A stretch of 64,000 nucleotides of DNA. Source: an uncultured Myxococcales bacterium (GTDB lineage Bacteria; Myxococcota_A; UBA9042). The position numbers and the translations under genes were made by a program. Shown in pieces: positions 4,406 to 61,852 of this stretch (the first letter of the stretch is position 1; the number at the start of each line of letters is the position of its first letter). The notes below the pieces were generated by a model. The model searched no databases. It was not told the origin of the DNA and was given only the letters and a program-made list of their open reading frames with translations. The stretch lies in contig CAISBR010000131.1 in assembly GCA_903883645.1 (NCBI GenBank), forward strand, positions 11,871-75,870, read 5' to 3'.

Positions 4406-4574
4406 GGGGCGAGTGGCGGGCACTGCTACCTAGCATCCGCGAAGTCCGCGCTAGAGCCCAAAAAACACTACGCCCGGAGTCCAGCGGACTCCGGGCGAGC
4501 GGGGAGGCGGCGGGGTGCGAGGCGGCGCGGCAGGCTAGGTACCAGGTACCCGACGGCCAGCCGCCGCGCACGCG

Positions 4575-4880
4575 CTACTTACCGCCGAGGTCCTTGAACT
4601 TCTTCAGACCATCGGGCGTCAGGTCGAACTTCGGCGCCATGTTGGCGTGGCAGGCCTTGCACGCCAGGGCTGGGTCCTTGGCCTTGGCCTCGCTGACCCA
4701 CGCCTTCCAAGCCTTCTTGGCCTCTTCCTGGCCGCCCTTCTTGCAGGCCTCTTCTGTCATCTTGGTCTCGAACTTGGTGCGGTTGCACGGAGCCGGAGCC
4801 GCCGGAGCATCGGCCATGGCCATGCCCGCGCCAAGAACAACCAGACCGAGCGCCAGGATCATCGAAAACTTCTTCATCAC
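4575..4880 (-). CDS. Small secreted monoheme c-type cytochrome
   Basis: Signal peptide MMKKFSMILALGLVVLGAGMAMA, single CxxCH (ACKACH), strong RBS GGAGGAGG. Same strand and immediately downstream of the sigma-54 regulator. Confidence 0.6.
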   Translation of the reverse strand: MMKKFSMILALGLVVLGAGMAMADAPAAPAPCNRTKFETKMTEEACKKGGQEEAKKAWKAWVSEAKAKDPALACKACHANMAPKFDLTPDGLKKFKDLGGK

Positions 4881-5067
4881 TTCCTCCTCCAGTCAACGGG
4901 CCGACCACCTGGCCGCCCCGCTGTCTGGCTTTGTATGCGAGCAGGCGCGTTTCTGTAGGTGCGCTCTTCTCGCCGAGCTGCCGCAGTTGCCCGCGGTGCT
5001 TCGTTTGCTTGCCCAGGTGCGGAATTTTCCACAGCGACTGGGCCAAATTCCACAGTTTCCGCCGCAC

Positions 5068-6471
5068 CTAACCGGCTTTGGCGGGCGCTGGTCCATCGGC
5101 GTCGGGCGCAAGACCCAGGGCCGCCAGCTTCTCGTACAAGGTGCTGCGATGCAGGCCCGCCAGCTCGGCGGCGCGTTGCACGCTGTGACCCGACCGCACC
5201 AAAAGCCGAGTAAAATAATCTACTTCGAATGCGCGGCGCGCGTCCTTGAAGTGGTCGATGTCGGCTGCGTGCGAGCTACTGGTTTGACCCTCGCGGGGCG
5301 CCACTAGCTCCGTTGGCAGACAATCAACCGTAATTTCAGAACCATCACAGATGAGCGCCGCCCGCTCGAGCACATGCTCTAGTTCCCGAACGTTTCCGGG
5401 CCACGGATATTCAATCATCGCGCGCAACACGGCCGGCACCACGGTGTGTTGGGGCCGGTGGTCGCGTGCCGCAATCTTCTGCAAGAAGTGGTCCACTAGG
5501 CGGCCGATGTCCTCGGCGCGCTTGCGCAGGGGCGGCAGCTCGATACGCACGGTATTGATACGATAATACAGGTCTTGGCGAAACTGACCGCGCTCGGCCA
5601 GCTGCTCGATGGCCCGGTTTGAGGCGCACAGCATCCGCACGTTGGTGTGCTCGAGCCGCCTGCTACCAACTCGATAATACTCGCCATTTTGCAGAACGCG
5701 CAGGAGCTTGGGCTGCAGCGCCAGGCTCATGTCGCCAATCTCGTCGAGGAAAAGGGTGCCGCCATCGGCCTCGGCAAAAAAGCCTTCGCGCGACTGATTG
5801 GCGCCCGAAAACGCGCCCTTTTCGTGGCCAAATAGCTCACTTTCAAGCAGGTGTTCGGGGATCGCGCTGCAGTTCAGCGACACGAACGGCCCCTTGTTGC
5901 GCAGGCTCAACTTGTGGATATGCTGGGCAAACACGTCTTTTCCGGTGCCGCTTTCACCCAGGATCAGCACGGGCAGGTCCGAGGGCGCCGCCCGCGCGGC
6001 TAGCTGCAAGGCCGCCTGCATCGTTGGGGCACTTCCAATAATTCCATGACTTTCAGTTTGGCGCGAGACCACGGAGCGCAGTCGGGTGTTTTCGCGCACC
6101 AACTGCCGGTGGGTGATCGCGCGCTCGACCACAATCTCGAGCTCGCTCGGATCAAAGGGCTTGCGCAAGTAGTCGAACGCGCCGCGCTTCATCGCCTCGA
6201 CAGCGGTCTCGACCGTGCCAAACGCGGTGATCACGACTACCGGCAGATCGGGATCGAGCTTGTGGAAGCGCTCTAAGCCCTGCAGCCCGTCGATTCCGGG
6301 CATGCGCAGGTCGGTCACCGCGACGTCCGCACCATCGGTCTGAAGAAATTCCTCGGCTTCGGCCACACCCGTGGCCGTGGCCAGCCGATAGCGCCGCGCA
6401 TCCATACTGCGGGTGAACAGCTCGCGCGCGGCGGGCTGATCGTCGATGAACAGGACGGTCGGTCGATTCAC
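5068..6471 (-). CDS. Sigma-54-dependent response regulator (NtrC family: receiver + AAA+ sigma-54 activator + HTH)
   Basis: Receiver (LFIDDQ...DLRMPGIDG), Walker A GESGTGKD, GAFSGA/ESELFGHEKGAFSGA sigma-54 interaction motif, C-terminal HTH. Overlaps the kinase gene by 4 bp. Confidence 0.9.
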   Translation of the reverse strand: MNRPTVLFIDDQPAARELFTRSMDARRYRLATATGVAEAEEFLQTDGADVAVTDLRMPGIDGLQGLERFHKLDPDLPVVVITAFGTVETAVEAMKRGAFDYLRKPFDPSELEIVVERAITHRQLVRENTRLRSVVSRQTESHGIIGSAPTMQAALQLAARAAPSDLPVLILGESGTGKDVFAQHIHKLSLRNKGPFVSLNCSAIPEHLLESELFGHEKGAFSGANQSREGFFAEADGGTLFLDEIGDMSLALQPKLLRVLQNGEYYRVGSRRLEHTNVRMLCASNRAIEQLAERGQFRQDLYYRINTVRIELPPLRKRAEDIGRLVDHFLQKIAARDHRPQHTVVPAVLRAMIEYPWPGNVRELEHVLERAALICDGSEITVDCLPTELVAPREGQTSSSHAADIDHFKDARRAFEVDYFTRLLVRSGHSVQRAAELAGLHRSTLYEKLAALGLAPDADGPAPAKAG

Positions 6472-8450
6472 GGCGCCTCCTGTTTCGGCCCGTCGAGCGG
6501 CAGGTCGATGGTAAAGGTGGTGCCCACGCCGAGCTGCGACTCAACACTCAGCTGTCCGCCATGTAAAGCAATGATTTGATGGGCAATTGATAGGCCAAGG
6601 CCCGTACCTTTGCCTTCCTTTGTCGAAAAGAACGGGTCGAAGATGCGGTCGAGATTCTCGCGCGGAATGCCGCAGCCGTTGTCGGCGATGACGACGCGGG
6701 CGCGCTGGTTGGCGTCGCGATGGGCGCTGACCCGCAGTGTCGGGTGGGGCACGCCGTCGAGCGCGTCGAGAGCATTGAGCAGTAAATTGACCAGAACCTG
6801 CACCAACTGCCGGCCATCACAGCGAATCGCGCCCAGATCGGCCTGGATATTCTCGTCGAGCTGCACTGTAGACGACCGCAGCCGATATCCACACATGCCC
6901 AGCGCCTCTTGCAGTAGGTCCGCCAGCGATTCGTCGCCAAAGCGGTTGTGCCCCGGCCGTGCAAACTGCAAGAAACGGTCCAAGATCTGAACACCTCGCT
7001 GATTTTCGCTGCGAATGGCGGCAATGTCGGGCGTGCGGTCGTCGTCGGCGGGCGTGGCGCGGGCCAGCAGCCCGGCAAAGCCTTGGATCGCGTGCATCAC
7101 GTTGCCGAGCTCGTGGGCCAGGCCCGCCGCAATCGTTCCGAGCGAAACCAAGCGGTCGTGGCGGCGCAAACGCTCTTCCAGCATGCGGTCGGCCGTCACA
7201 TCCGTCACGATGAGCACCGCGCCCAATGAACGGTTGCCCTGGCCGAGCAGCGGGTAGGCGTGGATGGCGAGCTGCCGCTGGGTAGGGCCACTGGCCTGTT
7301 CGCCGTCGCCGGTCGATGGATCATACATCCTTGAAATTTCGAACTTTCTCCCCTTGCGTGTATGGATTACCTCTTCGACCGTACGCCACAGCGGCTCGCC
7401 CTCGGGCACGATCTGTGCCAAGTGCATGCCGGGCTCGGGCTTCGACAGCCCCGCTAGCTGGCGACTCGCAGACTGGTTGACCTGTACGACCTCGCCGGCC
7501 AAATCACATGTTAACACGCCCTCTTCCATCGCACGGAACACCGACTCAAGGTAACGCGCCGTCTCGCGCAGCTCGGCCGTCACATCGTCGACGCGCTGGC
7601 GCAGGCGCGCACTCTGCAGCTGCAGCTTGTCGAGCAGGTCGGCGTTTGCCGCGCGCTGTTCTTTCAAAGCATCGACCAACTGCCCAAATCGATACTGCAA
7701 TTGACCGATCTCGTCGCGTGAAGTGGGGGCGATGGCGACTTGATCGAATTTGCCCTCGGCCACGGCTTCGGCCGCCTTGCCCAACTGTGCCAAAGGATTG
7801 GTAATTCTTCGCACATATACCGAGGCCAGGGCCGAGCCCACTAGCATCCACAGCAGCGCCATCGCCAGGGCAACTGCAGTTAAATGAAAGCTTTTTTCGG
7901 CCAGCACCGTCGAGCGAAAAACCAGGTTGATGTTGCCTACGATCTCGCTACCGCGCGCAATCGGCGCCCCAACCTCGTACATCGCATCGTCGCCGACCAG
8001 CGCCGCCAGACCTGGACTGCGCCGTGGTGTCCGAAATGCACCAAATGGCTGCGTTATTTGCGGTTCACGCCCCGGGCGCTTGCGCGACGCCAGCACCTTG
8101 CCGGCGCGGTCGCTCACCACTACCTCGACCACATCGACGGTCTTGTCGAGCCGGTCAAAGAGCAGACCAAAGGCCCTTTCGGTCGGATTCTCGAGCAGCG
8201 CCACCGCACTCGTGGCCACGCTCTGGGCAACGATGGTGCCGTCGCTCAGCACATGCTGGTCCATATCCGTGATTTCGCTCGATAACCACACCAAGGTCTG
8301 GCCGAGCAGCACCAGGCAAATCACGCCCGACATCAGCACGACCAGCTTGGTGCCGAGACTTATCGGTGCGCCACGGAGCCACGCCATCGCTGTTAACCAC
8401 GGCCGCAGACTCAGCTTCATGACTGGCCTCGCATGGGCAAGCTGTGGCAT
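6468..8450 (-). CDS. Transmembrane sensor histidine kinase (TM, HAMP, PAS, HisKA, HATPase_c)
   Basis: H-box [15 protein letters not shown]; N/G boxes [22 protein letters not shown]...GTGLGLSIA. Alternative start ATG at 8420 forms an ATGA overlap with the stop of the upstream cytochrome gene. Confidence 0.85.
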
Positions 8451-9439
8451 TTTTCGCAGGGCAAGGTATTCATGCCCGCGGGGGCGGTGCGCGGTCTGCG
8501 TCGTTCAGGGCGACCGCCCTCGGCGCTGCTGGGCGAGACATCGGGCGGCAAGCGGATGCCGGGTGGCAAGGTCTTGAAATCGCTGTTGTCGTGGCACTCG
8601 CGGCAGGCGCTTAAGCTCACGCGCCACAGGTGTGGTTTGTGGCAGTCGCCGCAGTTGCTGTGGTCGGCGATGTCGTGGATGGCCGACGGCAGCTTGCGCT
8701 TGTGGCAGCTGGTGCAGGCGACGATGCGGTCTTGGCCCTTGCCGTGTGGGCGGTGGCAGGTGCCGCAGCCCAGGTTAGCCATGTGGTGATCCTTAGAGTA
8801 ATCGGGCACATAAATGCCCCTCGCGCTGTGGCAATCGATGCACTGCGCCTGCGACGGCAACAGATCATCGCGCTTGGTACGAAAATCGTGGCACGCGTTG
8901 CAGTGCAGCTTCGACATGCCGGCGATGCGCACCTGCTCTTCGTGGCACTTGCCGCACGCATCGAGCGGGTCTACGTTCTTGTGCATCGACGCGCCGTGGC
9001 ACGAGTCGCAGCGCACATTGGGCTGGCGCAGGTGCAGGGCATGGCCGGCCGACACGTGGATCGGCGCATGGCCCGGCATCGGCTTGCCATGGCACGCGGT
9101 GCACGCACTCATCGGCACTTTGGGCGAATGTACGGCGGCCACAGAGCCCGGCTTGGTCGGATCGCGGCCACTCGCATAGGCCCTCAGCATCTCGGCGGCC
9201 TGTTCCAAGGTCTGGTGGTGGCAGTCTTGGCAGGCCACATCGTGGTGCGCGCTTTTTTGCCAAAGCTGGTACTGCTCTTGCGGCTCGTGGCAGTTGGCGC
9301 AAAATTGCGAGTCGTGTTCAACACTATGCACCACCTGCCGCCAGCTTGCGTAGGCAGCCACCACGAACACGATCCCGGCCGCTAGCCACCACCGCATACG
9401 CGGCGACAGTGCGGGTTGGCTTGGCTCCTCTCTGTCCAT
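8417..9439 (-). CDS. Membrane-anchored dodecaheme c-type cytochrome
   Basis: N-terminal TM helix (WWLAAGIVFVVAAYASW) and 12 CxxCH motifs in ~300 aa (CANCH, CQDCH, CTACH, CDSCH, CGKCH, CNACH, CIDCH, CGTCH, CTSCH, CGDCH, CRECH, CEKCH). The heme density resembles c7-type polymer cytochromes. Confidence 0.85.
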   Translation of the reverse strand: MDREEPSQPALSPRMRWWLAAGIVFVVAAYASWRQVVHSVEHDSQFCANCHEPQEQYQLWQKSAHHDVACQDCHHQTLEQAAEMLRAYASGRDPTKPGSVAAVHSPKVPMSACTACHGKPMPGHAPIHVSAGHALHLRQPNVRCDSCHGASMHKNVDPLDACGKCHEEQVRIAGMSKLHCNACHDFRTKRDDLLPSQAQCIDCHSARGIYVPDYSKDHHMANLGCGTCHRPHGKGQDRIVACTSCHKRKLPSAIHDIADHSNCGDCHKPHLWRVSLSACRECHDNSDFKTLPPGIRLPPDVSPSSAEGGRPERRRPRTAPAGMNTLPCEKCHSLPMRGQS

Positions 9440-9520
9440 GCCGTCCCCCGTCTCCTCGGTCCGCTGCGCTCATCGGCACAACCGGGCCGCAAGCACTAGG
9501 TCTCTAACCCGCCTCAGCAC

Positions 9521-10105
9521 CTAATGGCAACCTCCGCAGGTCTGTGTGCGGATCGTGACCTGAAAGTGCCCTTCAAAGGCGTGGCAGCTGTGGCAGTGTC
9601 CCACACCCTGCTCGTCGTGATCAAAGTGCGAGAACGTACCCGTAGGCAACTCAACTTTGGCTGGCTTCTCCGCTGCGTCGTCGTCGTCGCCCGTCGCCGT
9701 TGTCGCCGCAGGGGCCCCCGCTCCCGTCCCGCCGTCGTCCGCTGCTGTGGGTGAGGCTTCCCCAGCGGTGGCGGCAGGATTGGGAGCGGCAGGCTCCGCG
9801 GGACCGCCGGCATCACTGTCGACGGTCGCAGCTTCCGCAGGCGTTGCCGCCGCAGGTGGTTCGGCAGGAGGTGGGCCGAACGGGGTCCCCTTGCGGAAAG
9901 CTTCGAAATTGTGGCACCCAAAGCATGGTAACTTAGCAATTTTAGCAGCTCTACGGGCCTTTTCGGCCTCAGCAGCCTTGGCTGGGTCCTCGGCGGCGGC
10001 TGCGACATGGCTGGGGTCTTGCGCGGCGGCGCGTTGCCCTCCCACGACCCATGCGACCGCCGCTAGCATGGCCACCATGGCGCCTACTGCAGCGATGCGC
10101 TTCAT
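9521..10105 (-). CDS. Secreted triheme c-type cytochrome with a Pro/Ala-rich linker
   Basis: Re-called start: ATG at 10105 (GGGAGG RBS; ATGA overlap with the stop of the upstream gene). Signal peptide MKRIAAVGAMVAMLAAVAWV. CFGCH, CHSCH, CGGCH. The long N-terminal extension in the ORF track (9521..10708) lies in the same frame as the upstream gene's C-terminus and is rejected. Confidence 0.65.
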   Translation of the reverse strand: MKRIAAVGAMVAMLAAVAWVVGGQRAAAQDPSHVAAAAEDPAKAAEAEKARRAAKIAKLPCFGCHNFEAFRKGTPFGPPPAEPPAAATPAEAATVDSDAGGPAEPAAPNPAATAGEASPTAADDGGTGAGAPAATTATGDDDDAAEKPAKVELPTGTFSHFDHDEQGVGHCHSCHAFEGHFQVTIRTQTCGGCH

Positions 10106-11841
10106 TTTTCGCCTCCCTCTGGCGCAGTCGGCTTGGCCGCACTTGGCTCGGGCGCGGCCGCTTGCTCCGCAATGGGGGGCTGCGGGGCCTCGTCGGCCTT
10201 TTGCGCCTCTTTGACCCACTTGTCGTGCTCGTCTGCGTGCTCTTCGGCATAGTCGTGCAGGCTCATGCGCCCCGTCAAGAACACCCACGACATCGGGAAG
10301 ATAGATGGCCTCAGGTGCACGTTGTAGAAGTGCCAGACAAAGATCGCCAGGGCGGCCAGCAGGGCCTCGTCGGTATGGGCAAACCAGGCGATCTCGTAGA
10401 CCCAGGTGGGTGCGTACTTCATGATCGTGCTGGGGAACCAGCGTACCGCGCCCGACCCGACCATGATGACGCAGCCCCAGAACACTGCCCAGTAGTCGAA
10501 CTTCTCGAAGTAGGTGTAGCGACCATAGCGCGGACGCTCTTTGGCAAAGCCCAAGAACCAGGCGAGGTTTTGCGCCAAGTGCATCACATCGCGCGGCGCG
10601 GGCAACATGGTCGGCTGCAGCTTCTTTTGCAGCAACTTCTGCACCAGGTACGTCACGTGCAGCAGGGCCGCCACGATAAGACCGATCGCCGCGGCGCGGT
10701 GCAGCCAACCCAGCTGCTGCAAGCCACCGAACAGCGCGACCAAGCTATGCGAAGCGCCGATACCTCGCGTACTTAGCGGCCAACCCGTCAGCACCAGCGT
10801 CGAGAACGACAGCGCCATCAGGCCGTGGGCCGCGCGCTGCTGGCCGTCAAAGCGCAGCACCGTGCCGTCTTTGCCCACCCGTCCGCCACTGGCTTTGTGC
10901 AGCTTGTCGGTGTCAACCTTGTTGTTTTGGTGGGGCTTGCCCTCGGTAGCCTCGCGGCGCGCGCGGCGGATGACGTTGACCAGATCGAGCAGCACGTGCA
11001 GCGACAGGCCTAGGATCGTCAAGAAGGTGAGCCAGCCAAAGAAGCGGATGGTCCAGAACGACACCGGGCGATCCTCGGCGGTAATACCCTTGTGCCCGGC
11101 CAGTTTTTGGAAGTCTTTATCGGCACCTTGGTGGCACTTGGCGCACGGACCGGCGGCGCGGGCCTCGGTCTCGGTCACACTCTGCGGCGGATGCACCGGG
11201 TGGCAGTCGGCGCAACCGGGCGCATCGGGCGAGCCCAAGCTCAGCTTGGTAAAGTGCATCGTGTGCTCATACCCCTCGACCACATCGGCGCGCTGCTTAA
11301 CCGGCGCCATCTTCTTTTCGTCGCCATGGCACTTGATGCAGTGCTCGTTCATGTGCTTGCGCCAATCGTTCTTGGGCACATCGGCGCGCTTTTGGATGGT
11401 GTGGGGGTCGCCGTGGCAGTCGATGCAGTAGGGCAGGCCCGCCTTTAGACCGTCTTTCTGCTTGCCGTGCGGCATGGCGCCGGGCACTGCGCTCGGGCTG
11501 TCGTGGCAGTCGGTACACGCTGCCAGCGGCTCGGGGTGCTTGATGCCGCGCTTCTTAAGTGCATCGGCCGTCTCGCTTTTTACTTCTTCGACCGGCTCGT
11601 GCGGGTTGAACTGATAGCCCGTGTGACAGTCATTGCAGGCCTGCTCGCCGTGCGCCGAGGCCTTGTGGATCTTGGCCGAAAACTGCTCTTCTTGATGGCA
11701 GTTGCGGCACCACTTGGGGTCGTTGGCATCGGCCGGAGCCGCCAGAGCGGCCGCGGCAGTGCCGGTCACAAAGAGCAAGTTGGTCAGCGCCAGCCAGGCA
11801 GTGAGGCGAAGGGGCGGCAGACAGGCCAAGAAACGATGCAT
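10102..11841 (-). CDS. Fusion of a periplasmic heptaheme cytochrome c with an integral-membrane diheme cytochrome b (HydC/FdnI fold); CbcL-like quinol:cytochrome oxidoreductase
   Basis: Signal peptide, then 7 CxxCH (CRNCH, CNDCH, CTDCH, CIDCH, CIKCH, CADCH, CAKCH), then four or more TM helices carrying conserved His (HGLMAL, LHRAAAIG, LHVTYL, WFAHTDE, VWHFYNVHL) as in formate dehydrogenase gamma / hydrogenase b-type subunits. Confidence 0.75.
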   Translation of the reverse strand: MHRFLACLPPLRLTAWLALTNLLFVTGTAAAALAAPADANDPKWCRNCHQEEQFSAKIHKASAHGEQACNDCHTGYQFNPHEPVEEVKSETADALKKRGIKHPEPLAACTDCHDSPSAVPGAMPHGKQKDGLKAGLPYCIDCHGDPHTIQKRADVPKNDWRKHMNEHCIKCHGDEKKMAPVKQRADVVEGYEHTMHFTKLSLGSPDAPGCADCHPVHPPQSVTETEARAAGPCAKCHQGADKDFQKLAGHKGITAEDRPVSFWTIRFFGWLTFLTILGLSLHVLLDLVNVIRRARREATEGKPHQNNKVDTDKLHKASGGRVGKDGTVLRFDGQQRAAHGLMALSFSTLVLTGWPLSTRGIGASHSLVALFGGLQQLGWLHRAAAIGLIVAALLHVTYLVQKLLQKKLQPTMLPAPRDVMHLAQNLAWFLGFAKERPRYGRYTYFEKFDYWAVFWGCVIMVGSGAVRWFPSTIMKYAPTWVYEIAWFAHTDEALLAALAIFVWHFYNVHLRPSIFPMSWVFLTGRMSLHDYAEEHADEHDKWVKEAQKADEAPQPPIAEQAAAPEPSAAKPTAPEGGEK

Positions 11842-11900: not shown

Positions 11901-11917
11901 CGCACGATGCGTGCCAA
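11901..11917 (-). promoter_or_regulatory. Candidate sigma-54 (-24/-12) promoter for the cytochrome operon
   Basis: Minus strand reads TTGGCACGCATCGTGCG: TGGCAC-N5-GTGC versus the consensus TGGCAC-N5-TTGCA, with GG/GC spacing preserved. About 60 nt upstream of the ATG at 11841 and adjacent to the NtrC-type regulator. Confidence 0.45.
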
Positions 11918-11996: not shown

Positions 11997-12135
11997 TGTC
12001 GGGTTTGCCGGACGGCTGTCGGCATGTCCCGACAAGTCCGCTGTCGGGTTTTCCAGACAAGCATACATGCGTACTATCGATGAGATATGTGGCATGTCTG
12101 GATTTCCAGACACCCTTTGTCGGGTTTTTTGGACA
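11997..12135. promoter_or_regulatory. Array of five TGTC-N10-GACA palindromes (putative enhancer/UAS sites)
   Basis: Copies at 11997-12013 (degenerate), 12017-12034, 12042-12059, 12095-12112 (perfect TGTCTGGA-tt-TCCAGACA) and 12118-12135; consensus TGTCGGGTTTTCCAGACA. They lie 80-230 bp upstream of the candidate sigma-54 promoter, in the divergent intergenic region. Confidence 0.5.
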
Positions 12136-12289
12136 AAAGCTGCCGAGAGCGCCGACACCGGCCTCGCTAGCGGTCTGGCACCGCGCCACCCGTCACAGCA
12201 ATGTCTGAAAATCCGACACGCCTTTCGGCCTTGCGCCGCTCGCCAACACGGCTCACCATCGCTGCGACACCCACTCGCCGGGCGTAGCG

Positions 12290-34066: not shown

Positions 34067-35740
34067 GTGACACTCTTGAGACAGAAACGCGCAGTTGCAG
34101 CGCGGGTGATTGGGCCGACCTGGCAGCCGTGCTATCGTCGTGCTGCCCGCCGTAGCGGGTCGATGGCGCCCATGGCCCGCCGCGGCATTAAACCCCCTGA
34201 AAAGAAAACGAGTCGCCCGGCCGCAACGCTGGGGTCGCCGCTGCTGACGGGCGAAGTGGGCACCCTGTGGCGGCGCGCGCCGACGGAAGTGGTGCTGTGC
34301 TACGCCAACAGCTACCGCGTGGCTGCGTCGAGCCTGGGCTTTCAGCTCATTTACCGCGAGCTGAACCGTCGCGACGATATGGCCTGCCACCGCGCCGTGT
34401 TCGAGCCTCTCGCGGTGCGCGGGCCGTTGCCGCCGATTCGCTCGCTCGAGTACGGCAAGCGCCTCGACGACTACGATGCGATCTTGCTGTCGCTGGCCTA
34501 CGAGCTTGATCTGGCGAATCTTGCTTTGATGCTAGAGGCTTGTGGCCTGTCGCCCCTGGCGAGTGAGCGGCCGGAGTCGGCGCCGCCGCTGATTGTGGGT
34601 GGGCCGGTCACGACCTCGAATGTGCTGCCGCTGGCCGTGTTTGCCGATGTGGTGGTCATGGGCGAGGCCGACGAGCTGATTGTGCAACTGACCGATGTGC
34701 TGGCGCAGCGACCGTCGCGGGCTGAGTTGCGGCGCTGGGCGCTGACGGTGCCGGGCCTTTGGGTGCCGGCAGAGCAGGGCGATGCGGTGCCGGCGCTGCT
34801 GCCGGTGGGCGCGCATTGTCTGCCAGCTTTGGGGCAATTTCGCAGTCCGAATGCTGAGTTTAGCGACATGATGCTGCTCGAGGCGAGCCGTGGCTGTCCG
34901 CGCTATTGCAGCTTTTGCGTGGTCCGCGCCCCCTTGGCGCCGATGCGCGAGCCCGAGCTTGATCGCGTGGTGGCAGCGCTCGATCGCCCTGAATTTGCTT
35001 CGAGTCCGCGGGTTGGCCTTGTGGGCGCGGCCGTGAGCGACTGGGGGCCGATCAAGGGCGCGATGCGCGCCATCATCGAACGTGGCAAAACCTTTGGAAT
35101 TTCGAGCTTGCGGGCCGATCGCTTGGACGAAGACGACGAGTTTGTCGACTTGTTGTACCAGGGCGGTTACCGAACCATGACAGTCGCGTCGGATGCCCCC
35201 AGCCAGCGCATGCGCAACAAGCTGAAAAAAGGTATTCGCGAAAGGCACTTATGGGGCTCGGCCCTGCAGGCGCGGCGCGTGGGCATGAACGGCTTCAAGA
35301 TGTATCTGATCATCGGTTTGCCGGGCGAAGAGGCCGAAGATATCGACGAACTCATCGCGTTTTGCCAGCGCTTGTCGACGCAGGTGCGCACCGCGATTAC
35401 ACTATCGCCCTTTGTGCCCAAGCTGCATACCCCGCTGGCGGCGGCGGAATTTGCCGATCCCGACGCGACCCAGGCGACGTTGCGGCGCATTCAGGCGGCC
35501 CTGGCCGAGCGGGTGGATGTGCGCTTCGACGCGCCGAAGTGGGCCTGGGTCGAGTATCGGCTGAGCCAAGGTGGCATGGCGACAGGGCTTGCCGCGATCG
35601 AGGCTGCGCGCAATGGCGGTGGATCAACGGCGTGGCGGCGGGCGTTGGCGGCCCTGGATGCTCGCGATGCTACAGAAGAACGAGCGGCACTGGCGGCGGC
35701 GGAGCGGCACAAACTGTGGCCGGCGACCGGCGAACGCTGA
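34067..35740 (+). CDS. B12-binding-domain radical SAM protein
   Basis: N-terminal cobalamin-binding-like Rossmann segment, radical SAM cluster motif SRGCPRYCSFC (Cx3Cx2C). Alternative start 34163. Confidence 0.7.
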   Translation: MTLLRQKRAVAARVIGPTWQPCYRRAARRSGSMAPMARRGIKPPEKKTSRPAATLGSPLLTGEVGTLWRRAPTEVVLCYANSYRVAASSLGFQLIYRELNRRDDMACHRAVFEPLAVRGPLPPIRSLEYGKRLDDYDAILLSLAYELDLANLALMLEACGLSPLASERPESAPPLIVGGPVTTSNVLPLAVFADVVVMGEADELIVQLTDVLAQRPSRAELRRWALTVPGLWVPAEQGDAVPALLPVGAHCLPALGQFRSPNAEFSDMMLLEASRGCPRYCSFCVVRAPLAPMREPELDRVVAALDRPEFASSPRVGLVGAAVSDWGPIKGAMRAIIERGKTFGISSLRADRLDEDDEFVDLLYQGGYRTMTVASDAPSQRMRNKLKKGIRERHLWGSALQARRVGMNGFKMYLIIGLPGEEAEDIDELIAFCQRLSTQVRTAITLSPFVPKLHTPLAAAEFADPDATQATLRRIQAALAERVDVRFDAPKWAWVEYRLSQGGMATGLAAIEAARNGGGSTAWRRALAALDARDATEERAALAAAERHKLWPATGER

Positions 35741-35838
35741 AACCCGCACCCCGAGCACGCCTTGCCAGTTGTCGAACGGCGGCAGTAACTGCATCCTATG
35801 GTGAGTCGGGCCGGCCAGCCCGCAGCCGAGGCTACGCC

Positions 35839-38800
35839 GTGCTCCCAACCCATCGCAGAATTCTTTCACTGTGGTTTCAAGTGCTTCTTAGCCTTGTGGC
35901 CGTATTTGCGACCGCCAGCTGCGGCGACGGTGCCTCGAGCCACCCCTGGGCCATCACCGGCGTACCGTGCCCAACCAGCAAAAGCCGCTGCGCCGAGCTG
36001 TGCGTCGACCTGAAGGCGGACCCCATCAACTGCGGCGAATGCGGCCACGGCTGCGGCCTGGGCGAGGTCTGCTCGCTGGGCAAGTGCGCGCTGTTCTGCG
36101 CCGACCCCTTGGTCGACTGCGGTGGCCTGTGCGCCGACCTTCGCACCGATGTGGCCCACTGCGGCACCTGCTCGACCGGTTGCCCCAAGGGCAGCGTGTG
36201 CCAAAACAGCAAGTGCGAGCTCAGCTGTATCGACGGCGATGTACCGTGCGGCGGCGCCTGTGCCAACTTGCAGGCGGACCCCAAGCACTGCGGCAAGTGC
36301 GAAAAATCGTGTGTCGGCGAAGAGTTCTGCAGCTCGGGCGAATGCAAACTGCCGTGCACCGGCGGCCAGCTGCAGTGCGGCGACAAGTGTGTCGATCTAG
36401 CGAGTGACGTAAGCAACTGTGCCGGCTGCGGCCAGACCTGCCCCGCGGGCAACTGGTGCGTCAATGCCAAGTGCGTGCCCACGTGCCAAGTTGGCATGGC
36501 GGAGTGCGGTGCGGCGTGTGTCGACCTAGATAACGACTTGAATCACTGTGGCAATTGCGACAAGGTCTGCGCGGCTGGCCAAGTGTGCAGCAAGGGGCAA
36601 TGCACCGCCGCTTGTGCCACGGGCCAGATCGAGTGCGGCGGCAAGTGCAGCGACCCCAAAGAGGATTCAACCCATTGTGGCGACTGCGAAACAGCGTGCA
36701 AGGCCGGCCAGTTGTGCTCGGGCGGCAAGTGCACACTGTCGTGCCAAGAAGGCCTGATTGATTGCGAGGGCGTGTGCGCCAACCCCAAGACCGACATTAC
36801 CCATTGCGGCGGCTGCTACCAACCGTGCGCCACCGGCAGCGTCTGTGTCGACGGCGCGTGCAGCTTGGCCTGCCCCGGCACCATGACCGGCTGCGAAGAC
36901 GGCCTGTGCGCCGACTTGACCACCGACCCCTTGCACTGCGGCAGCTGCAGCACCGTCTGCGCACCCGGCGAGAAGTGCACCGGCGGCAAATGCCTGCTGT
37001 CGTGCCAGAGCGGTTTTGAAGTGTGCGCGGGCACTTGCGTAGACTACGCCAGCAACAACCAGCACTGCGGCGACTGCGAAACCAGCTGCGCCACCGGCCA
37101 GCAGTGCAAGAATGGCAAGTGCGTCCTCGACTGCCAGCCGGGCCTGAGCGCGTGCGGCGGCACCTGTGTCGACGTCTCGACCAACAACGCGAACTGCGGC
37201 GATTGCGACCAGCCATGTCCGCTCGGCCACGTCTGCCAAGCCGGCAACTGCAAGCTTAGCTGCCAGCAAGGCATGGATGAGTGCAGCGGCACGTGCAGCA
37301 ATCTGAAAACCGACGAATTGCACTGCGGATCCTGCGACAAGCAATGCGCGTCGGGCATGATCTGCGTCAACGGCAAGTGCACGCCCGACTGCCCGGTCAG
37401 CCAGGTCAATTGTGGTGGCAACTGTTCGGATTTGCAGGTAGACCACCAGCACTGCGGCGACTGCGACACGGCGTGCTCGTCGGGCGAAATCTGCTTTAGC
37501 GGCAAGTGCGTGTCGAGCTGCAAGTCGCCCCTGCTCGGCTGCGGCAACGTGTGCATCGACCCCAATTTTGACCCCAACAACTGCGGCGATTGCGGCCAAG
37601 TCTGCCAACTGCCCAACGCGGTAGCGCCGGCGTGCATGGGCGGGGCTTGCCAAGTCACTACGTGCCAAGACGGCTACGCCAACTGCGACAACCAGTCGGC
37701 GAATGGCTGTGAAATCGAGCTAAAATCAAGTGGTTTGCACTGCGGCGCCTGCAATAAGGTGTGCACGTTGTTCAAGGCCATCCCCTCGTGCCAAGACGGC
37801 AAGTGCGTCGTCACCGCGTGCGAAGAGGGCTGGGGCGACTGCAACGGCAACGCTGACGACGGCTGCGAGCAAGACCTGGGCACCTCGGCGGCCAACTGTG
37901 GCGGTTGCGGCATCAAGGTCGCGGCCGGCGAAGTTTGCTGCGGCGCCAAGCCCGTCGTGGGCAGCAGCTATGCCACCGACTCGAACAACTGTGGCGCGTG
38001 CGGCAACGTCTGTGGCAGCGGCCAGGTGTGCTGCGGCGGCTTCTGCTACACGGTCGACGGAAGCAAAATCTGCCCCGATTGCGGCAAGTTGTGCAACGTA
38101 GCCGAAGTCAGTGGCAACAAGTTCATCACCACCGGTGCGGTCAGCAAGCTAGAAGCGTCGGGTTCGGGCATTAGCACCGTATCGAACGAGGGCGGCAAGA
38201 ATCAGGTCGCCACGCCCCGGGTGTGGATCGCCGCCCACGACTCGAACTTGGTGAACCGCCTCGACACCGGGTCCGGCAAATTGATGAGCGTGTTCCCATC
38301 GTTCGGCAGCAATCCGTCGCGCGGCGCGGTGGCACTCGACGACACGTTCTGGATTGGCAACCGCTGCCCGAGCGACGCCAACAACCCCAAGTGCAGCAAC
38401 GTCGCGCAGTTGAACAGCGACGGCACGCTGGGCTGCTTGGTGGGCAACGCCGCTGACGGCGCGCCGCTGCCGCTGGTTCGGGCGATCGCGGTCGATGACC
38501 AGGGCTTTATCTGGCTCGGCACCTGGAACGACGCGCGTATCCACAAGATCGACCCGTTAGCCTGCAAAACGATTGCCGATTACACCGTTCCCGTCGGTGC
38601 TAGCCCTTATGGCTTCGCGATCGACAGCACTGGCTTGCTCTGGATCAGCAGCCCCAACGGCCCGACCGAGCCGCTCCGCTCGTTCGACACCAAGACCGGC
38701 AAGTTGGTCGACAGCGTAGCGCGCAACTCGAACACCTATGGCGTGGTGGTCGACGGCGATAGCAACGTGTGGTTCGCGTCGTGGTGCACGCCCAACGTGC

Positions 38801-39522
38801 TCGAAATCGACAAAAAGACCAAGGCGTTGACCACCCGCAGCATCGATGGCTTGCCCAGCCCGAGCCAATGGTGTGCGCGCGGCATGGCGGTCGATGTCGA
38901 CGGCAACGTATGGGCAGCCGTGGGCCGCTACAACAGCGATGCGTGTGCTGCCGGCGAGAGCTATGTAGCTAAGTACCAGAAAACTACTGGTAAATTCCTG
39001 GGTTTGTACAAGATCGGCGCTCCGTTCGGCGGTGGCGCGCTCGGCATCTCGATGGACGCCAACGGCCGCTTGTGGGTCACCAGCACCTGCACGAACAAGG
39101 CCGCGCGCATCAACAAAGACACGGGCGCTACCGAGCTCGTCGCCGATTTGTACGGCACCAACCCGTACACCTATTCGGATTGGACCGGCGCGATGCTGAA
39201 GAATGTGACGACGCACAACGGTCAAATGGGGCTGTGGACGGCGAATTTTGATGGAAATGCCGCGACGGCCCAGTGGCAGCAGGCCACCTACACCAGCGAC
39301 ATCCCGGCTGGCACGCGCATCCGCTTGCGCTTCCGGGCTTCGTCGGCCATCGAAGCGATCGAAGGTGCGACCTGGTGCGTGCCCGCCGAGACGTCGCCCG
39401 TAGACCTAAAGTCCTGCAATTTCGGGCAGAAGCGTTACCTGCAGGCCCAGGTGTACCTGATTACCAACGATGTGGATGTGCGGCCCACACTCGACAACTT
39501 CAAAGTCTACTGGCAGAACTAG
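35839..39522 (+). CDS. Giant lipoprotein: about twelve tandem 43-aa 8-Cys repeats plus irregular Cys-rich modules, with a C-terminal beta-propeller (Vgb/SMP-30-like blades)
   Basis: Re-called start GTG 35839, giving MLPTHRRILSLWFQVLLSLVAVFATASC (lipobox). Repeat C-x3-C-x6-C-x3-C-x(9-10)-HCG-x-C-x3-C-x5-C (for example CELSCIDGDVPCGGACANLQADPKHCGKCEKSCVGEEFCSSGE). C-terminal blades VDDQGFIWLGTW, STGLLWISS, DSNVWFASW, DGNVWAAVG, NGRLWVTST. The in-frame upstream 196 codons in the track overlap the previous gene and are rejected. Confidence 0.8.
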   Translation: MLPTHRRILSLWFQVLLSLVAVFATASCGDGASSHPWAITGVPCPTSKSRCAELCVDLKADPINCGECGHGCGLGEVCSLGKCALFCADPLVDCGGLCADLRTDVAHCGTCSTGCPKGSVCQNSKCELSCIDGDVPCGGACANLQADPKHCGKCEKSCVGEEFCSSGECKLPCTGGQLQCGDKCVDLASDVSNCAGCGQTCPAGNWCVNAKCVPTCQVGMAECGAACVDLDNDLNHCGNCDKVCAAGQVCSKGQCTAACATGQIECGGKCSDPKEDSTHCGDCETACKAGQLCSGGKCTLSCQEGLIDCEGVCANPKTDITHCGGCYQPCATGSVCVDGACSLACPGTMTGCEDGLCADLTTDPLHCGSCSTVCAPGEKCTGGKCLLSCQSGFEVCAGTCVDYASNNQHCGDCETSCATGQQCKNGKCVLDCQPGLSACGGTCVDVSTNNANCGDCDQPCPLGHVCQAGNCKLSCQQGMDECSGTCSNLKTDELHCGSCDKQCASGMICVNGKCTPDCPVSQVNCGGNCSDLQVDHQHCGDCDTACSSGEICFSGKCVSSCKSPLLGCGNVCIDPNFDPNNCGDCGQVCQLPNAVAPACMGGACQVTTCQDGYANCDNQSANGCEIELKSSGLHCGACNKVCTLFKAIPSCQDGKCVVTACEEGWGDCNGNADDGCEQDLGTSAANCGGCGIKVAAGEVCCGAKPVVGSSYATDSNNCGACGNVCGSGQVCCGGFCYTVDGSKICPDCGKLCNVAEVSGNKFITTGAVSKLEASGSGISTVSNEGGKNQVATPRVWIAAHDSNLVNRLDTGSGKLMSVFPSFGSNPSRGAVALDDTFWIGNRCPSDANNPKCSNVAQLNSDGTLGCLVGNAADGAPLPLVRAIAVDDQGFIWLGTWNDARIHKIDPLACKTIADYTVPVGASPYGFAIDSTGLLWISSPNGPTEPLRSFDTKTGKLVDSVARNSNTYGVVVDGDSNVWFASWCTPNVLEIDKKTKALTTRSIDGLPSPSQWCARGMAVDVDGNVWAAVGRYNSDACAAGESYVAKYQKTTGKFLGLYKIGAPFGGGALGISMDANGRLWVTSTCTNKAARINKDTGATELVADLYGTNPYTYSDWTGAMLKNVTTHNGQMGLWTANFDGNAATAQWQQATYTSDIPAGTRIRLRFRASSAIEAIEGATWCVPAETSPVDLKSCNFGQKRYLQAQVYLITNDVDVRPTLDNFKVYWQN

Positions 39523-43970: not shown

Positions 43971-44059
43971 TTTCTAAGCTGCCTACGCGGCAGTGAACGA
44001 GATGGCCCAGCAGGATGCGCTCACGGACCTTCTTCTAAGCTGCCTACGCGGCAGTGAAC
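43971..44059 (-). CRISPR. Orphan CRISPR mini-array: two repeats matching the type I-F consensus (28 bp) flanking one ~33-bp spacer; no cas genes in the window
   Basis: Plus-strand repeats tttctaagctgcctacgcggcagtgaac (43971-43998) and cttctaagctgcctacgcggcagtgaac (44032-44059). The reverse complement, GTTCACTGCCGCGTAGGCAGCTTAGAAA, matches the I-F consensus including the CUGCC-N5-GGCAG hairpin. Spacer 43999-44031. Confidence 0.55.
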
Positions 44060-45273: not shown

Positions 45274-45684
45274 CTACATCAACAGCAGGAACACGGCGCC
45301 AGCCGCGGCCGCCATGCGCCCACCGCCCTCGATAATTGCGATGACCTTGCCATATTTCGAGTCGCCCCGAATGACTTTATCTCCATCAAGAATTGCGATG
45401 ACTTTGCCGTATTTCGAGTCCCCAGCGATCAACTTTTCGCCATCGACGAGCGCAATCACTTTGCCATACTTCGAATCGCCGCCAATGACCTTTTCTCCGT
45501 CGACGAGGGCAATCACTTTGCCGTACCTGGAGTCTCCGGCTATCAGCTTGCCGTCCTCAAAGACCGCAATTACTTTGCCATACTTCGAGTCTCCGGCGAT
45601 CACCTTACCAAGCGCCCAAGCAGGCGAGGCCGCGCACACGCCGATTGCCATTGCCAGCCAGAAGTGCAGTAGTTTTTGATACAT
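45274..45684 (-). CDS. Small secreted protein composed of six tandem 19-aa repeats (GDSKYGKVIALVDGEKLIA)
   Basis: ATG 45684 with GAGGGG RBS; signal peptide MYQKLLHFWLAMAIGVCAASPAWA; 57-bp DNA periodicity; lower local GC. Confidence 0.6.
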   Translation of the reverse strand: MYQKLLHFWLAMAIGVCAASPAWALGKVIAGDSKYGKVIAVFEDGKLIAGDSRYGKVIALVDGEKVIGGDSKYGKVIALVDGEKLIAGDSKYGKVIAILDGDKVIRGDSKYGKVIAIIEGGGRMAAAAGAVFLLLM

Positions 45685-46850: not shown

Positions 46851-46990
46851 CGCTGGCCGTCGGTAGCCTGTCTGTCTGCGAGTTCGAGAAACGCCTGCCG
46901 CGACGAGTGGCACGCGCTCGGCCGGCCGGCGGATCTGGCCGCGATGGAGTTGATCGAGGCGCGGTTGTGGGTGCGGCGCCGGCTGGGTAG
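46851..46990. repeat. ~140-bp block duplicated at 50582-50716 (about 88% identity; this copy has a 1-nt indel)
   Basis: Both copies were aligned by eye: ctggccgtcggtagcctgtc(t/c)gtctg...gagtggcacgcgctcggccggccggcgga...atggag...gatcga...tag. Confidence 0.6.
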
Positions 46991-47668: not shown

Positions 47669-48577
47669 CTACCCGGCCACCCGCCCGCCGCGCTCCATCG
47701 GCAGCACCTCCGCCCCACCACCAGGCCCAAGCCCATCAAACCGCCCAAGATCCCCCATGAACGCCGCCGGGCTCAAATGCGCATACCGCAGCGTCAGCTC
47801 GGTCGACTTGTGCCCCAGAATCTTCTGCAGCTTGAACAGATCGCCGCCCGCCATCATCCAGTGGCTAGCGAACGTATGTCGCAGATCATGAAAGCGAATG
47901 TAGTGCGACTGCCGCCCCTGCTCCGGCCGCTTGAACCCCGCCGCGTCGAGCACCTTGTGAAAGCGCTCGCAAAAGATGCGGTCCTTCGACCGGTGCATCA
48001 GCCCCTTGGTGTTCGGAAACAGCAGCCCGCCCGGGCAGCGCAGCCGCCATGCCCGCAAAATCGGCAGCAGCACGTCCAGAATCGGCACATAGCGCACGTC
48101 GCCGGCATTGGTCGGCCCGTCAAAGCTGCGGTCCACGGTGATGATGCGCCGGTCCAGGTCCACGCACTGCCAGCTGAGCGCCGCCAGCTCGCCCTGGCGC
48201 AGCCCGGTGTAGACCGCAGTAGCAAATCGGGTGTAGGCGTCGACGCTATCGTCGTGCGCGGCCCGCAGGAACCGTTGCACCTCCTCGCTGGACCGCAGGT
48301 AGCTGAAGTCCTGGCCGTTGACCCGCACGCTGGGCTTGTCGATGGGCGGCACCGCCAGCAACCAGCCCAGCCGGTGCGCCTGTTTCAGCATCGACCCCAG
48401 CAGAATCAGCAGGTGCCTTAGCATCTGCTTGGACAGGCCGGCGCGCTCGGGCTTGAATACCGCGTTGCGGGCAAGGGCAACGTCTTGCAAGGCCTGCCCA
48501 AGAAGGCCCGGCGCCAACGGCCTGCTTGGCGCCTGCACAGGTGTATCCGCCGGGTACGTCTGCAGATTGGCGCCCAC
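47669..48577 (-). pseudogene. 5'-truncated copy of the tyrosine recombinase (integrase) found at 52375-53508
   Basis: About 90% identical to the full integrase from FKPERAGLS onward (catalytic R...HxxR...Y region intact), but the N-terminal ~125 aa are replaced by unrelated sequence. Confidence 0.7.
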
Positions 48578-50076: not shown

Positions 50077-50581
50077 GTGACTGCGCAATCGCGTTCGCCG
50101 GCCGCCTTAATTATCCGTGGCGACCACGTCGGAGCGAAGCTTGAATCCGCCCAAATGGTACCGACTTAATGGTGCGGCGCGCGATTTTGGGCCAAGGTTC
50201 GCAACAGCCGCATACTCCCGCAGCGGCACCCCGTGTCATGGGCTTCGTCGCCAAGAGCGCGTAGTGATTCTGAGTTGGCGGCGAATTCCAACCGAAGTTT
50301 GTAGCTGCCGGGCCTCGGCAACTGCCCCGGTCGATTGCTATCCAGCTTGAGCAGAGCTGCTTTGCAACGCGCCTTCACCTGCCAATGTGCGGACCGCCGT
50401 CGCCCACGGCCCGCCGAGGCGGGAACACGGGCCGGCTACCACGAGCGCGAGCCGGTCCGCGCATCGCGCCGCCCGTCGCCCCCGGGACCCTGATCCGCTA
50501 CGAAACCGGTGCCTGCGCCCTGAACACTGGCGTGACCTCCGGCGAGGCCCGCGCATTGGGCTGCAGGCTCGACGCGCTGGC

Positions 50582-50716
50582 CGTCGGTAGCCTGTCCGTC
50601 TGGGAGTTCGAGAACGCCTGCCGTGACGAGTGGCACGCGCTCGGCCGGCCGGCGGACCTGGCGGCCATGGAGCTGATCGAATCGCGGATGTGGGAGCGGC
50701 GGCGGGCGGGGTAGAG
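50582..50716. repeat. Second copy of the ~140-bp duplicated block (see 46851-46990)
   Basis: Direct alignment with the first copy. Confidence 0.6.
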
Positions 50717-53508: not shown

Positions 53509-53737
53509 CCTTGCCTCCCGAAGGGGCAAGCTATCCATTCGTCTCAACTTCTTCTGCTGACAGTTTTGCCGACTTGTCTGTCAGCAAAACGGCCGGGCAG
53601 GGCGCCTTGGGGGCAGCCGCGCCGCGCCGAATCCCCGGTGTCCGAGCTACCCGCGAGCACCTCGAAAAACAGGGGGGGTACGAGCCTCTCGGGCAATTTT
53701 CGGGCAACGACAGGGGGTCAAAATCGAAATTCCCTAG

Positions 53738-53811
<74 letters not shown>

Positions 53812-61651: not shown

Positions 61652-61852
61652 ACCTCGCCCTCGGAGTCTAGCGTGCGACGCAGCGAGCCGGGCGTCAAGC
61701 CGGCGCGGTTGGCTCCGTGGCGCCAGGTCGTGCAACCCCGCATCGCAACAGTGGACTGCATGCGCCAGTGGCAATGGCTTCTGGATTGTCGTAGCCTGCA
61801 AAATGGCTGCAAGCGCGTTCCGCTTGCCCCGACACTACTAGGAGGACCGCCG

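Follow-up and report, generated by a model that had tools for sequence, protein, structure and literature searches.

In a 64,000-nucleotide stretch of DNA from an uncultured Myxococcales bacterium (contig CAISBR010000131.1; the whole stretch is hereafter the window), five adjacent minus-strand genes, g1 to g5, probably constitute one sigma-54-dependent, self-activating operon for a complex in the inner membrane through which the quinone pool and the periplasm would exchange electrons. The genes encode a cytochrome of the CbcL/MtoC/MtrH family (g1), a triheme protein (g2), a membrane-anchored dodecaheme cytochrome (g3), a sensor histidine kinase (g4) and an NtrC-family activator (g5); the coordinates are collected in Table 1. 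Together they form a real five-gene cassette that is conserved in Myxococcota.

Reading of the open reading frames (ORFs) places six minus-strand genes at 4575-11841, the sixth being a small gene, g6, that follows g5, and the same genes are called on five metagenome contigs of identical sequence. The first-pass annotation of this DNA had counted seven consecutive genes, but the next gene downstream of g6 is a plus-strand gene for a HAD hydrolase. It had also reported ATGA start/stop overlaps at three junctions: these are indeed present where g1 meets g2 (10105/10102) and where g3 meets g4 (8420/8417), while the 4-nt overlap of g4 and g5 (6471/6468) reads GTGA because g5 starts with GTG. The gap between g2 and g3 is 81 bp. 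Within the window, which has a G+C content of about 63%, g1, g2 and g3 are the only multiheme ORFs.

The five genes recur together in Myxococcota

We surveyed the cassette by running g1 to g6 in tblastn against 80 related loci and by counting ORFs and heme motifs there. The order g1-(g2)-g3-kinase-regulator recurs in at least 16 related loci and is therefore not a chance arrangement. A 12-heme homolog of g3 (296-359 aa) lies beside the g1 homolog in about 15 loci, and a kinase and a regulator follow the g1 homolog in 16, the regulators being 51-66% identical to g5. Most of these loci belong to Anaeromyxobacteraceae and other Myxococcota, and g2, too, is kept in the closest relatives. The same gene order stands in two further loci, between unrelated and differing flanks. 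What persists in distant phyla is only a g1 gene paired with one for a multiheme protein with a g3-like N-terminus; this pairing reaches Acidobacteriota, Calditrichota, Aquificota and Phycisphaerae. In the Myxococcota literature we found, for this cassette, only surveys by hidden Markov model (HMM) that mention CbcL homologs, and such homologs had already been noted in Myxococcota genomes in this way (bioRxiv 10.1101/2022.03.26.485925).

The surroundings of the cassette bear on the proposal that its cytochromes serve a dedicated periplasmic reductase encoded elsewhere (for example of nitrite, sulfur or selenium oxyanions). Subunits of the NapC/NirT/NrfH and FdnI types usually do serve dedicated periplasmic enzymes, and a sensor kinase of its own would fit a substrate-specific response. 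We nevertheless hold this proposal to be decidedly unlikely, given that the cassette is flanked by no gene for a catalytic subunit, either in the window or in the relatives, and that the flanks consist of unrelated housekeeping genes which differ between genomes. We favour a complex for electron exchange between quinones and the periplasm, and its likely components are described below.

g1 encodes a heptaheme cytochrome c fused to a cytochrome b

The product of g1 runs from a signal peptide through a periplasmic domain (approximately residues 36-258) and five transmembrane (TM) helices carrying an FdnI-type diheme cytochrome b to a cytoplasmic low-complexity tail. The seven CxxCH motifs fall within residues 45-237, and multiheme Pfam models match the N-terminal half of the protein. 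The first-pass annotation had described g1 as a CbcL-like fusion of a heptaheme domain with a cytochrome b and had named detection of a b-type domain by HMM as the decisive test. Such a domain is found: Pfam model Ni_hydr_CYTB (PF01292, prokaryotic cytochrome b561) matches residues 330-506 with 43.7 bits against a cut-off of 30.1 bits (E = 3.4e-11). The description is borne out further by conserved His ligands, by the fold and by homology to a Geobacter-type CbcL over the whole length.

Our searches found 558 homologs of g1, with relatives encoded in at least 590 species genomes from many phyla, and most of the best 120 of the 558 carry seven hemes. Alignments of 17 and of 70 sequences show no variation in any of the seven CxxCH motifs. 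In the membrane domain, the 70 homologs all have H339, H381, H395, H489, H504 and H509, and at least 90% of sequences keep H282. The periplasmic domain has five additional invariant His residues and two more that are nearly invariant (17-sequence alignment), and thus enough for bis-His ligation of all seven predicted c-hemes. In a number of relatives the c-type half (heptaheme or with 8-9 hemes) and the cytochrome b half lie on separate ORFs (L016, L026, L028, L053, L055, L059, L076 and L077), true splits and assembly frameshifts being counted together; the fusion therefore appears not to be fixed in the family.

The AlphaFold2 model of g1 (mean predicted local distance difference test, pLDDT, 85.9; predicted template-modelling score, pTM, 0.78) has five TM helices, at residues 259-300, 333-357, 374-404, 444-468 and 479-510. 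Its best fold match in the PDB is FdnI, the gamma (diheme b) subunit of Escherichia coli formate dehydrogenase-N (1kqf_C; E = 7e-5, target-normalised TM-score 0.77), followed by the cytochrome b of hydrogenase-1. A sequence alignment with FdnI places H381 and H489 on the heme ligands His57 and His155, and H504 one residue off His169; H339, from where it stands in the first helix, is assigned to His18. As a stand-alone enzyme subunit of four helices, FdnI reduces menaquinone, whereas g1 adds a helix at the N-terminus and, by covalent linkage, a heptaheme domain, with no dehydrogenase genes nearby. A role of g1 as a subunit of formate dehydrogenase or hydrogenase was ruled out, as its scores are far below the equivalog cut-offs and catalytic genes are missing from its neighbourhood.

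CbcL sensu stricto, required for the reduction of acceptors below about -0.1 V, combines nine hemes and six TM helices in one polypeptide. In the Geobacter sulfurreducens protein (GSU0274) a periplasmic nine-heme domain (residues 30-279) precedes a six-helix diheme-b domain (PMC9129911; bioRxiv 10.1101/2021.04.15.440034). As a Geobacter-type reference we used a sequence stitched by hand from the frameshifted cbcL gene of a metagenome contig (L086), a fragment of which is 94% identical to a published CbcL fragment. In both proteins an N-terminal periplasmic multiheme c domain is joined in one chain to an FdnI/HydC-type diheme b domain, which lies in the membrane and forms the C-terminal part. 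In tblastn g1 matches the L086 gene with E = 2e-40, and in BLASTP it matches the Geobacter-type CbcL fragment with 40% identity over 115 aa (E = 2e-27). A global alignment with the stitched protein has 538 columns at 34% identity and lines up every candidate b-heme His residue; identity to the published G. sulfurreducens fragment is 49% over 43 aa. The motifs EKFD(Y/F)WAVFWG and HF(Y/F)N are common to g1 and CbcL. Hemes 1, 2 and 3-7 of g1 pair with hemes 1, 2 and 5-9 of the stitched CbcL; CbcL hemes 3 and 4 lie in an insertion that is missing from g1, and so is the sixth, C-terminal helix of CbcL. With seven hemes and five helices, and with the sixth helix on the separate g2 product, which contributes three more hemes, g1 belongs to the CbcL/MtoC/MtrH family but is not an ortholog of the Geobacter-type protein. 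This family spans 15 phyla, with 3-23 hemes, 4-6 TM helices and 28.6-100% identity, and the whole-length identity of about 34% between g1 and CbcL is similar to the 35% reported for CbcL against MtoC/MtrH (PMC6295460).

Family membership and fold are also what one would cite for a module that runs in reverse, in the manner of MtoC, with g1 to g3 taking up periplasmic or extracellular electrons and the FdnI-type bundle reducing quinone on the cytoplasmic face, like FdnI itself. Metal reducers and metal oxidisers alike have members of the CbcL/MtoC/MtrH family, and no sequence feature tells the direction (PMC6295460); the closest structural relative of the g1 membrane domain, FdnI, is a quinone reductase. 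We consider this direction unlikely, since mtoA/mtoB-like and Cyc2-like genes are missing nearby, since both characterised Geobacter Cbc proteins are quinol oxidases, and since the relatives are mostly Anaeromyxobacteraceae and other Myxococcota, a group in which, according to work cited in bioRxiv 10.1101/2022.03.26.485925, metal reduction has been shown experimentally. The role of the module that we regard as most likely is conditionally induced quinol oxidation that would feed periplasmic or extracellular acceptors.

g2 resembles a detached C-terminal module of g1-like proteins

The g2 protein starts with a hydrophobic helix (signal peptide or anchor), followed by a triheme domain of the form CFGCH ... 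FSHFDH ... CHSCH ... CGGCH. About 25 of the best 120 g1 homologs have ten hemes, namely the same seven, the b domain, an extra TM helix and three C-terminal hemes (e.g. P0039). When g1 and g2 are concatenated they are colinear with these fused relatives: the g2 helix falls on their sixth helix and its three hemes fall on theirs. This colinearity, together with the ATGA overlap of the two genes, argues that g1 and g2 act as one functional unit.

The first-pass annotation had called g2 a c7-like triheme protein with a Pro/Ala-rich tether. The three hemes stand, but we would drop the c7 label, as g2 appears better described as the split-off equivalent of the sixth TM helix (TM6) and triheme C-terminus of the fused relatives. 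The Pfam model Cytochrome_C7 (PF14522) scores 19.5 bits against a cut-off of 24.8 bits and covers residues 163-194 only, and a PDB search with g2 returned no significant relative (best E = 0.09, an ACIII ActA-type chain). Like the c7 cytochromes, g2 has three hemes and the class III motif 'F-x-H-x-x-H ... CxxCH'. Its hydrophobic N-terminus, and the fusion of its equivalent to a CbcL-like protein in relatives, set it apart from the compact, soluble triheme fold (about 70 aa) of PpcA-type c7. The candidate assignment as a PpcA-type c7 was thus rejected on the sub-cut-off profile match, the hydrophobic N-terminus and an insertion of about 85 aa. This insertion is the Pro/Ala/Asp-rich stretch itself, which lies between heme 1 and the F-x-H-x-x-H motif. 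It is missing from the fused proteins, and missing or much shorter in the g2 homologs of L007, L016, L026 and L028, which argues for a lineage-specific loop insertion and not for a tether.

g3 encodes a dodecaheme cytochrome with a NapC/NirT/NrfH-like N-terminus

The g3 protein consists, in order, of an N-terminal TM helix with a NapC/NirT/NrfH-like tetraheme region, four hemes, a tetraheme segment resembling the small tetraheme cytochrome (STC) at residues 216-286, a Pro-rich insertion and heme 12. All 12 heme motifs are conserved in 13 homologs. The Pro-rich insertion, of about 45 aa, is common only to g3 and its closest homolog.

Pfam model PF03264 (NapC/NirT N-terminal region) matches residues 19-82 with 31.0 bits against a cut-off of 24.1 bits, and positions 3-138 of the 138-position NrfH model TIGR03153 align with residues 20-153, which hold the first four hemes. 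Hence g3 has the N-terminal helix and the tetraheme profile of the NapC/NirT/NrfH quinol dehydrogenases. As in NrfH, CymA and NapC, and in the NapC/NirT-like region of ImcH, the membrane anchor is followed by four CxxCH motifs with NrfH-like spacing. In contrast to NrfH, CymA and NapC, g3 has 12 hemes instead of four and lacks the CxxCHxM signature of NrfH heme 1, its own heme 1 reading CANCHEP. The similarity of g3 to an ImcH-like protein is marginal (E = 0.01 over 58 aa).

A membrane-anchored 12-heme protein had been proposed at this position in the first-pass annotation, and this is what g3 encodes; the annotation had also given it the heme density of c7 polymers, and the density is indeed similar, but no kinship with such polymers emerged from the sequence. 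Heme counts alone would invite the comparison with PpcA and GSU1996 (three and 12 hemes, respectively), as would the number of residues per heme (28 in g3 vs 26 in GSU1996). A structure of GSU1996 is available in the PDB. A PDB sequence search with g3 at E up to 1 returned no chain named GSU1996, dodecaheme or c7-type cytochrome; what it did return were STC, NrfH and a 278-residue chain labelled simply 'Cytochrome c' (28pb_A, E = 0.0029). Hemes 8-11 resemble the Shewanella STC (1m1p, E = 4.6e-4). A GSU1996-type c7 polymer, a soluble protein of four c7-type triheme domains, was therefore ruled out, g3 being membrane-anchored and without a named GSU1996 or c7 match in that search.

The NrfH-like N-terminus also raises the question whether g3, and not g1, is the working quinol dehydrogenase, of the electroneutral NrfH/CymA type, with g1 and g2 as a parallel entry for another redox range, much as ImcH and CbcL are two alternative oxidases, instead of a linear chain. 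The NapC/NirT match above its cut-off, the alignment of the first four g3 hemes with all four hemes of NrfH and the extension of the g1 plus g3-like pairing to Acidobacteriota, Calditrichota, Aquificota and Phycisphaerae all fit this arrangement, as does the adjacency of cbcL and an ImcH-like gene in a Geobacter-type contig. Set against these are a score of 35 bits with TIGR03153, far below the equivalog cut-off of 134 bits, the CANCHEP sequence where CxxCHxM would be expected, and two loci, L016 and L028, that keep g1, g2 and the regulators but no g3. On balance we think two alternative oxidases somewhat unlikely and prefer a chain in which g3 would extend the electron path from g1 and g2. 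In the Geobacter-type contig just mentioned (L086, 4635-8524), the frameshifted cbcL gene encodes nine hemes and six TM helices, and about 550 bp downstream lies the gene for a 482-aa ImcH-like protein with three N-terminal TM helices, a NapC/NirT-like region, five CxxCH motifs and one CxxxCH motif; two types of quinol oxidase are therefore adjacent there.

A two-component system and a candidate sigma-54 promoter

g4 has a periplasmic domain of about 130 aa between two TM helices, followed by HAMP, PAS, HisKA and HATPase_c domains. Neither Pfam nor PDB sequences gave a match to the periplasmic domain. Full-length g4 homologs with 42-43% identity are found in the nearest relatives, and the Anaeromyxobacteraceae keep the kinase core only. 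g5 combines a receiver (PF00072, 94.9 bits), an AAA+ sigma-54 interaction domain (PF00158, 230.6 bits) and a Fis-type helix-turn-helix (PF02954, 26.6 bits); by reading we found the Walker A sequence GESGTGKD, the sigma-54 contact loop GAFSGA and the receiver Asp in VTDLRMPG.

A candidate -24/-12 element lies 60 nt upstream of the g1 ATG and matches nine of the 11 specified positions, both invariant dinucleotides included. Transcription is predicted to start near 11890, which would place about 49 nt of leader ahead of the g1 start codon at 11841. Note that the element alone is unremarkable, as the window holds 50 two-mismatch matches where 48 are expected. However, a comparable element, defined as having the invariant GG and GC and at least nine of 11 matches, occurs in 13 of the 20 non-identical relatives, at a distance of 116-227 nt before the first heme codon, against a background of 0.11 per kb per strand (binomial P ~1e-20, and ~3e-12 after similar sequences are collapsed). 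We found no sigma-70-like promoter on the g1 strand. The element itself, at 11902-11914, is a perfect palindrome, GCACG-CAT-CGTGC; this could be coincidence, or it could be a second protein-binding site that overlaps the promoter.

Upstream of the element lies an array of 18-bp palindromes, detected as repeat family D1 and inverted repeats I1-I9, whose copies span 90-300 bp upstream of the -24/-12 element. Exact TGTC-N10-GACA occurs four times in the window, against 0.59 expected, and all four fall within 119 bp (12017-12135), 100-220 bp upstream of the element. Similar palindromes stand upstream of g1 in the closest relatives, L006 and L016. We propose the palindromes as candidate upstream activator sites to which g5 may bind. 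With -24/-12 spacing, a full set of activator domains and candidate upstream sites within the usual range of about 80-300 bp, the predicted arrangement is that of a classical enhancer-dependent promoter. The first-pass annotation had put the block under sigma-54/two-component control from the regulator gene alone, and the regulator domains, the -24/-12 element, the palindrome array and the conservation of the element in relatives all uphold this; sigma-54 control of g1 to g5 is well supported. As the regulators are predicted to be in the same transcript, the operon should autoactivate.

The alternative, that the two-component system is merely adjacent and governs other genes, and that the cytochromes are expressed constitutively, could appeal to the constitutive cbcL of G. 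sulfurreducens (bioRxiv 10.1101/2021.04.15.440034) and to the imperfect -12 element. It is nonetheless most improbable in view of the 4-nt overlaps at g3/g4 and g4/g5, a gene order kept in at least 16 loci with a conserved -24/-12 element upstream of g1, the clustering of all the window's exact palindromes upstream of g1 and a strand devoid of sigma-70-like promoters. In contrast to the constitutive Geobacter gene, g1 would share its operon with genes for an NrfH-like 12-heme protein and for a sigma-54 two-component pair.

We regard the sigma-54/BccR-dependent cbcBA operon of Geobacter (GSU0593-0598) as the nearest precedent for the putative self-activating operon. It too combines b-type and seven-heme c-type cytochromes, an NtrC-type regulator and a sigma-54 promoter; cbcBA is induced conditionally, and an RpoN-dependent regulator gene lies within the operon itself (bioRxiv 10.1101/2021.04.15.440034). 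The comparison of g1 with CbcA and CbcB is drawn from published descriptions, and CbcBA is reported to have no sequence homology to CbcL (bioRxiv 10.1101/2021.04.15.440034). Unlike the two halves of g1, CbcB and CbcA are separate proteins, bccR is divergently transcribed and CbcBA has no NrfH-like dodecaheme partner.

The downstream gene g6 and the end of the block

The small monoheme c that the first-pass annotation had included in the block does exist as a CxxCH gene, g6, but it is not part of the conserved module. Its start is most likely the ATG at 4877, preceded by a strong Shine-Dalgarno sequence, GGAGGAGG; the gap to g5 is 190 bp from this preferred start and 187 bp from a GTG at 4880. 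The g6 family numbers 175 cluster representatives, in which C31, C45 and C73-x-x-C76-H77 are invariant, and it corresponds to no Pfam family. No g6 homolog was found by tblastn in the 80 related loci, and the closest homolog (63% identity) sits in an unrelated context, so that g6 was ruled out as a member of the module and appears to be a same-strand neighbour only. Neither a sigma-54 nor a sigma-70 promoter is evident for g6, and its upstream region is not conserved with that of the closest homolog. In the locus of a 63%-identical relative (P0004) the same five genes are present, and a 115-aa ORF without a Pfam match lies some 290 bp beyond the regulator, at the position that g6 has in the window.

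On the minus strand, from g1 down to the strong intrinsic terminator that follows g6 (Table 1), we found no terminator-like site stronger than that one; two weak matches, with three G-C pairs each, lie inside the coding regions of g1 and of the histidine kinase. Read-through of transcription from g5 into g6 is therefore possible.

Table 1. Genes and regulatory features of the cytochrome block, with positions in the window (CxxCH motifs counted by script)
Feature	Position	Strand	Description
g1	10102-11841	minus	579 aa, 7 CxxCH; CbcL family
g2	9521-10105	minus	194 aa, 3 CxxCH; hydrophobic helix and triheme domain
g3	8417-9439	minus	340 aa, 12 CxxCH; membrane-anchored dodecaheme cytochrome
g4	6468-8420	minus	650 aa, 0 CxxCH; sensor histidine kinase
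g5	5068-6471	minus	467 aa, GTG start, 0 CxxCH; NtrC-family sigma-54 activator
g6	4575-4877	minus	100 aa, 1 CxxCH; small secreted protein
Candidate sigma-54 (-24/-12) promoter	11901-11916	minus	TGGCACGCATCGTGCG; GG at 11915-11914, GC at 11903-11902
18-bp palindrome array	11997-12218		Consensus TGTCGGGTTTTCCAGACA (TGTC-N10-GACA); five or six copies
Palindrome copy	11997-12014		One mismatch
Palindrome copy	12017-12034		
Palindrome copy	12042-12059		
Palindrome copy	12095-12112		
Palindrome copy	12118-12135		
Palindrome copy	12202-12218		N9 spacing
Intrinsic terminator	4471-4497	minus	Downstream of g6; 12-bp stem with 10 G-C pairs, then T-run

Other features of the window

The minus strand carries, at 43971-44059, a CRISPR-DR4 (type I-F-like) repeat of 28 nt, GTTCACTGCCGCGTAGGCAGCTTAGAA, in two copies that score 45.9 and 42.5 bits in Rfam, with a single spacer of some 33 nt between them. 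No cas genes lie near them, and the neighbouring ORFs have no Pfam or PADLOC matches; the pair may be an orphan mini-array. A tRNA-Arg(TCT) gene (53737-53811) adjoins a gene for a phage-type integrase (52375-53547), of which a 300-nt partial copy, 95% identical, is found 4712 bp away at 47678-47977; with further repeats of 88-95% identity at 46851-46987 and 50575-50710, the region has the look of a pair of elements integrated in tandem at the tRNA gene. The tandem repeat at 45334-45607 is built of 57-nt units (super-unit 114 nt; 2-4 copies, 75-81% identity) and probably represents a coding 19-aa repeat. Finally, the 1423-aa product of a plus-strand ORF (35251-39522) shows four Cys-rich repeats of the Stig1 type (Pfam 219 bits) together with a weak match to a beta-propeller, and two adjacent Ser/Thr protein kinase genes occupy 57806-61801 on the minus strand; both the Stig1-repeat protein and the kinase pair are typical Myxococcota features.

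Discussion

We propose that the diheme b bundle of g1 would carry electrons across the membrane between a quinone site and the seven bis-His c-hemes of its periplasmic domain. g2 would supply the sixth helix and three further hemes, probably docking on g1, and g3 would lengthen the wire by twelve hemes and may be a second entry point at which quinol is oxidised, so that the three proteins together could hold 22 c-type and two b-type hemes. On the regulatory side, g4 would sense a periplasmic or redox cue and phosphorylate g5, which would bind the TGTC-N10-GACA palindromes and activate sigma-54 RNA polymerase at the -24/-12 element. With the regulators co-transcribed, induction would take the form of positive feedback.

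Several points weigh against this proposal. Support for the operon and for its electron-transfer function is computational only. The -12 element reads GTGC instead of TTGC, and in seven of 21 loci (the window contig and 20 relatives) no element reaches the threshold, all seven being relatives. Beyond the window, only its two closest relatives show the palindrome motif. There is no rpoN gene in the window; Myxococcota are known to carry rpoN. The structure model of g3, built from a 15-sequence alignment, has a pLDDT of 50 and is unusable, being confident only for the helix at residues 13-41. The L086 reference is tied to G. sulfurreducens CbcL only through a machine-read fragment of a published alignment. 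Neither in the window nor beside the cassettes of relatives did we find a gene for an outer-membrane porin-cytochrome, for Mtr/Mto components or for a terminal reductase; the extracellular respiration that the first-pass annotation had suggested beside a periplasmic one is putative. Lastly, since MtoC of Fe(II) oxidisers is also a member of the family, electrons could flow the other way (PMC6295460).

The presence of an FdnI/CbcL-type bundle, with a quinone site expected near the cytoplasmic face, a NapC/NrfH-type anchor, with a site at the periplasmic face, and 22 predicted c-hemes also allows for a single sigma-54-switched machine that is not a simple export wire. Such a machine could be a redox-potential-gated quinol oxidase with two entries that spans the ranges of Geobacter ImcH and CbcL, or it could run a proton-motive redox loop that links two sites for quinone or two species of quinone. 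We give this idea a slender chance, and keep to the inner-membrane complex that would pass electrons between the quinone pool and the periplasm.

The cassette refines a known theme, that of Cbc-type quinone:multiheme cytochrome modules under sigma-54, and is not a new kind of system. What is added here is the split as opposed to the fused TM6-triheme module, the conserved NrfH-like dodecaheme partner, the mapped candidate promoter with its candidate activator sites, and five genes that travel together. CbcL-type proteins serve as markers of extracellular electron transfer in genomes, and to our knowledge only the Geobacter CbcL-type protein has been studied experimentally. The window shows a distinct and populous heptaheme clade that travels as a self-contained cassette, with a detachable TM6 and triheme module, an NrfH-like dodecaheme and its own sigma-54 kinase/activator pair. 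The existence of split and fused forms of g2 predicts physical contact between g1 and g2. With its predicted promoter, candidate activator sites and positive feedback, the cassette offers a testable model for how Myxococcota, including Anaeromyxobacteraceae, may switch on a quinone-to-periplasm route.

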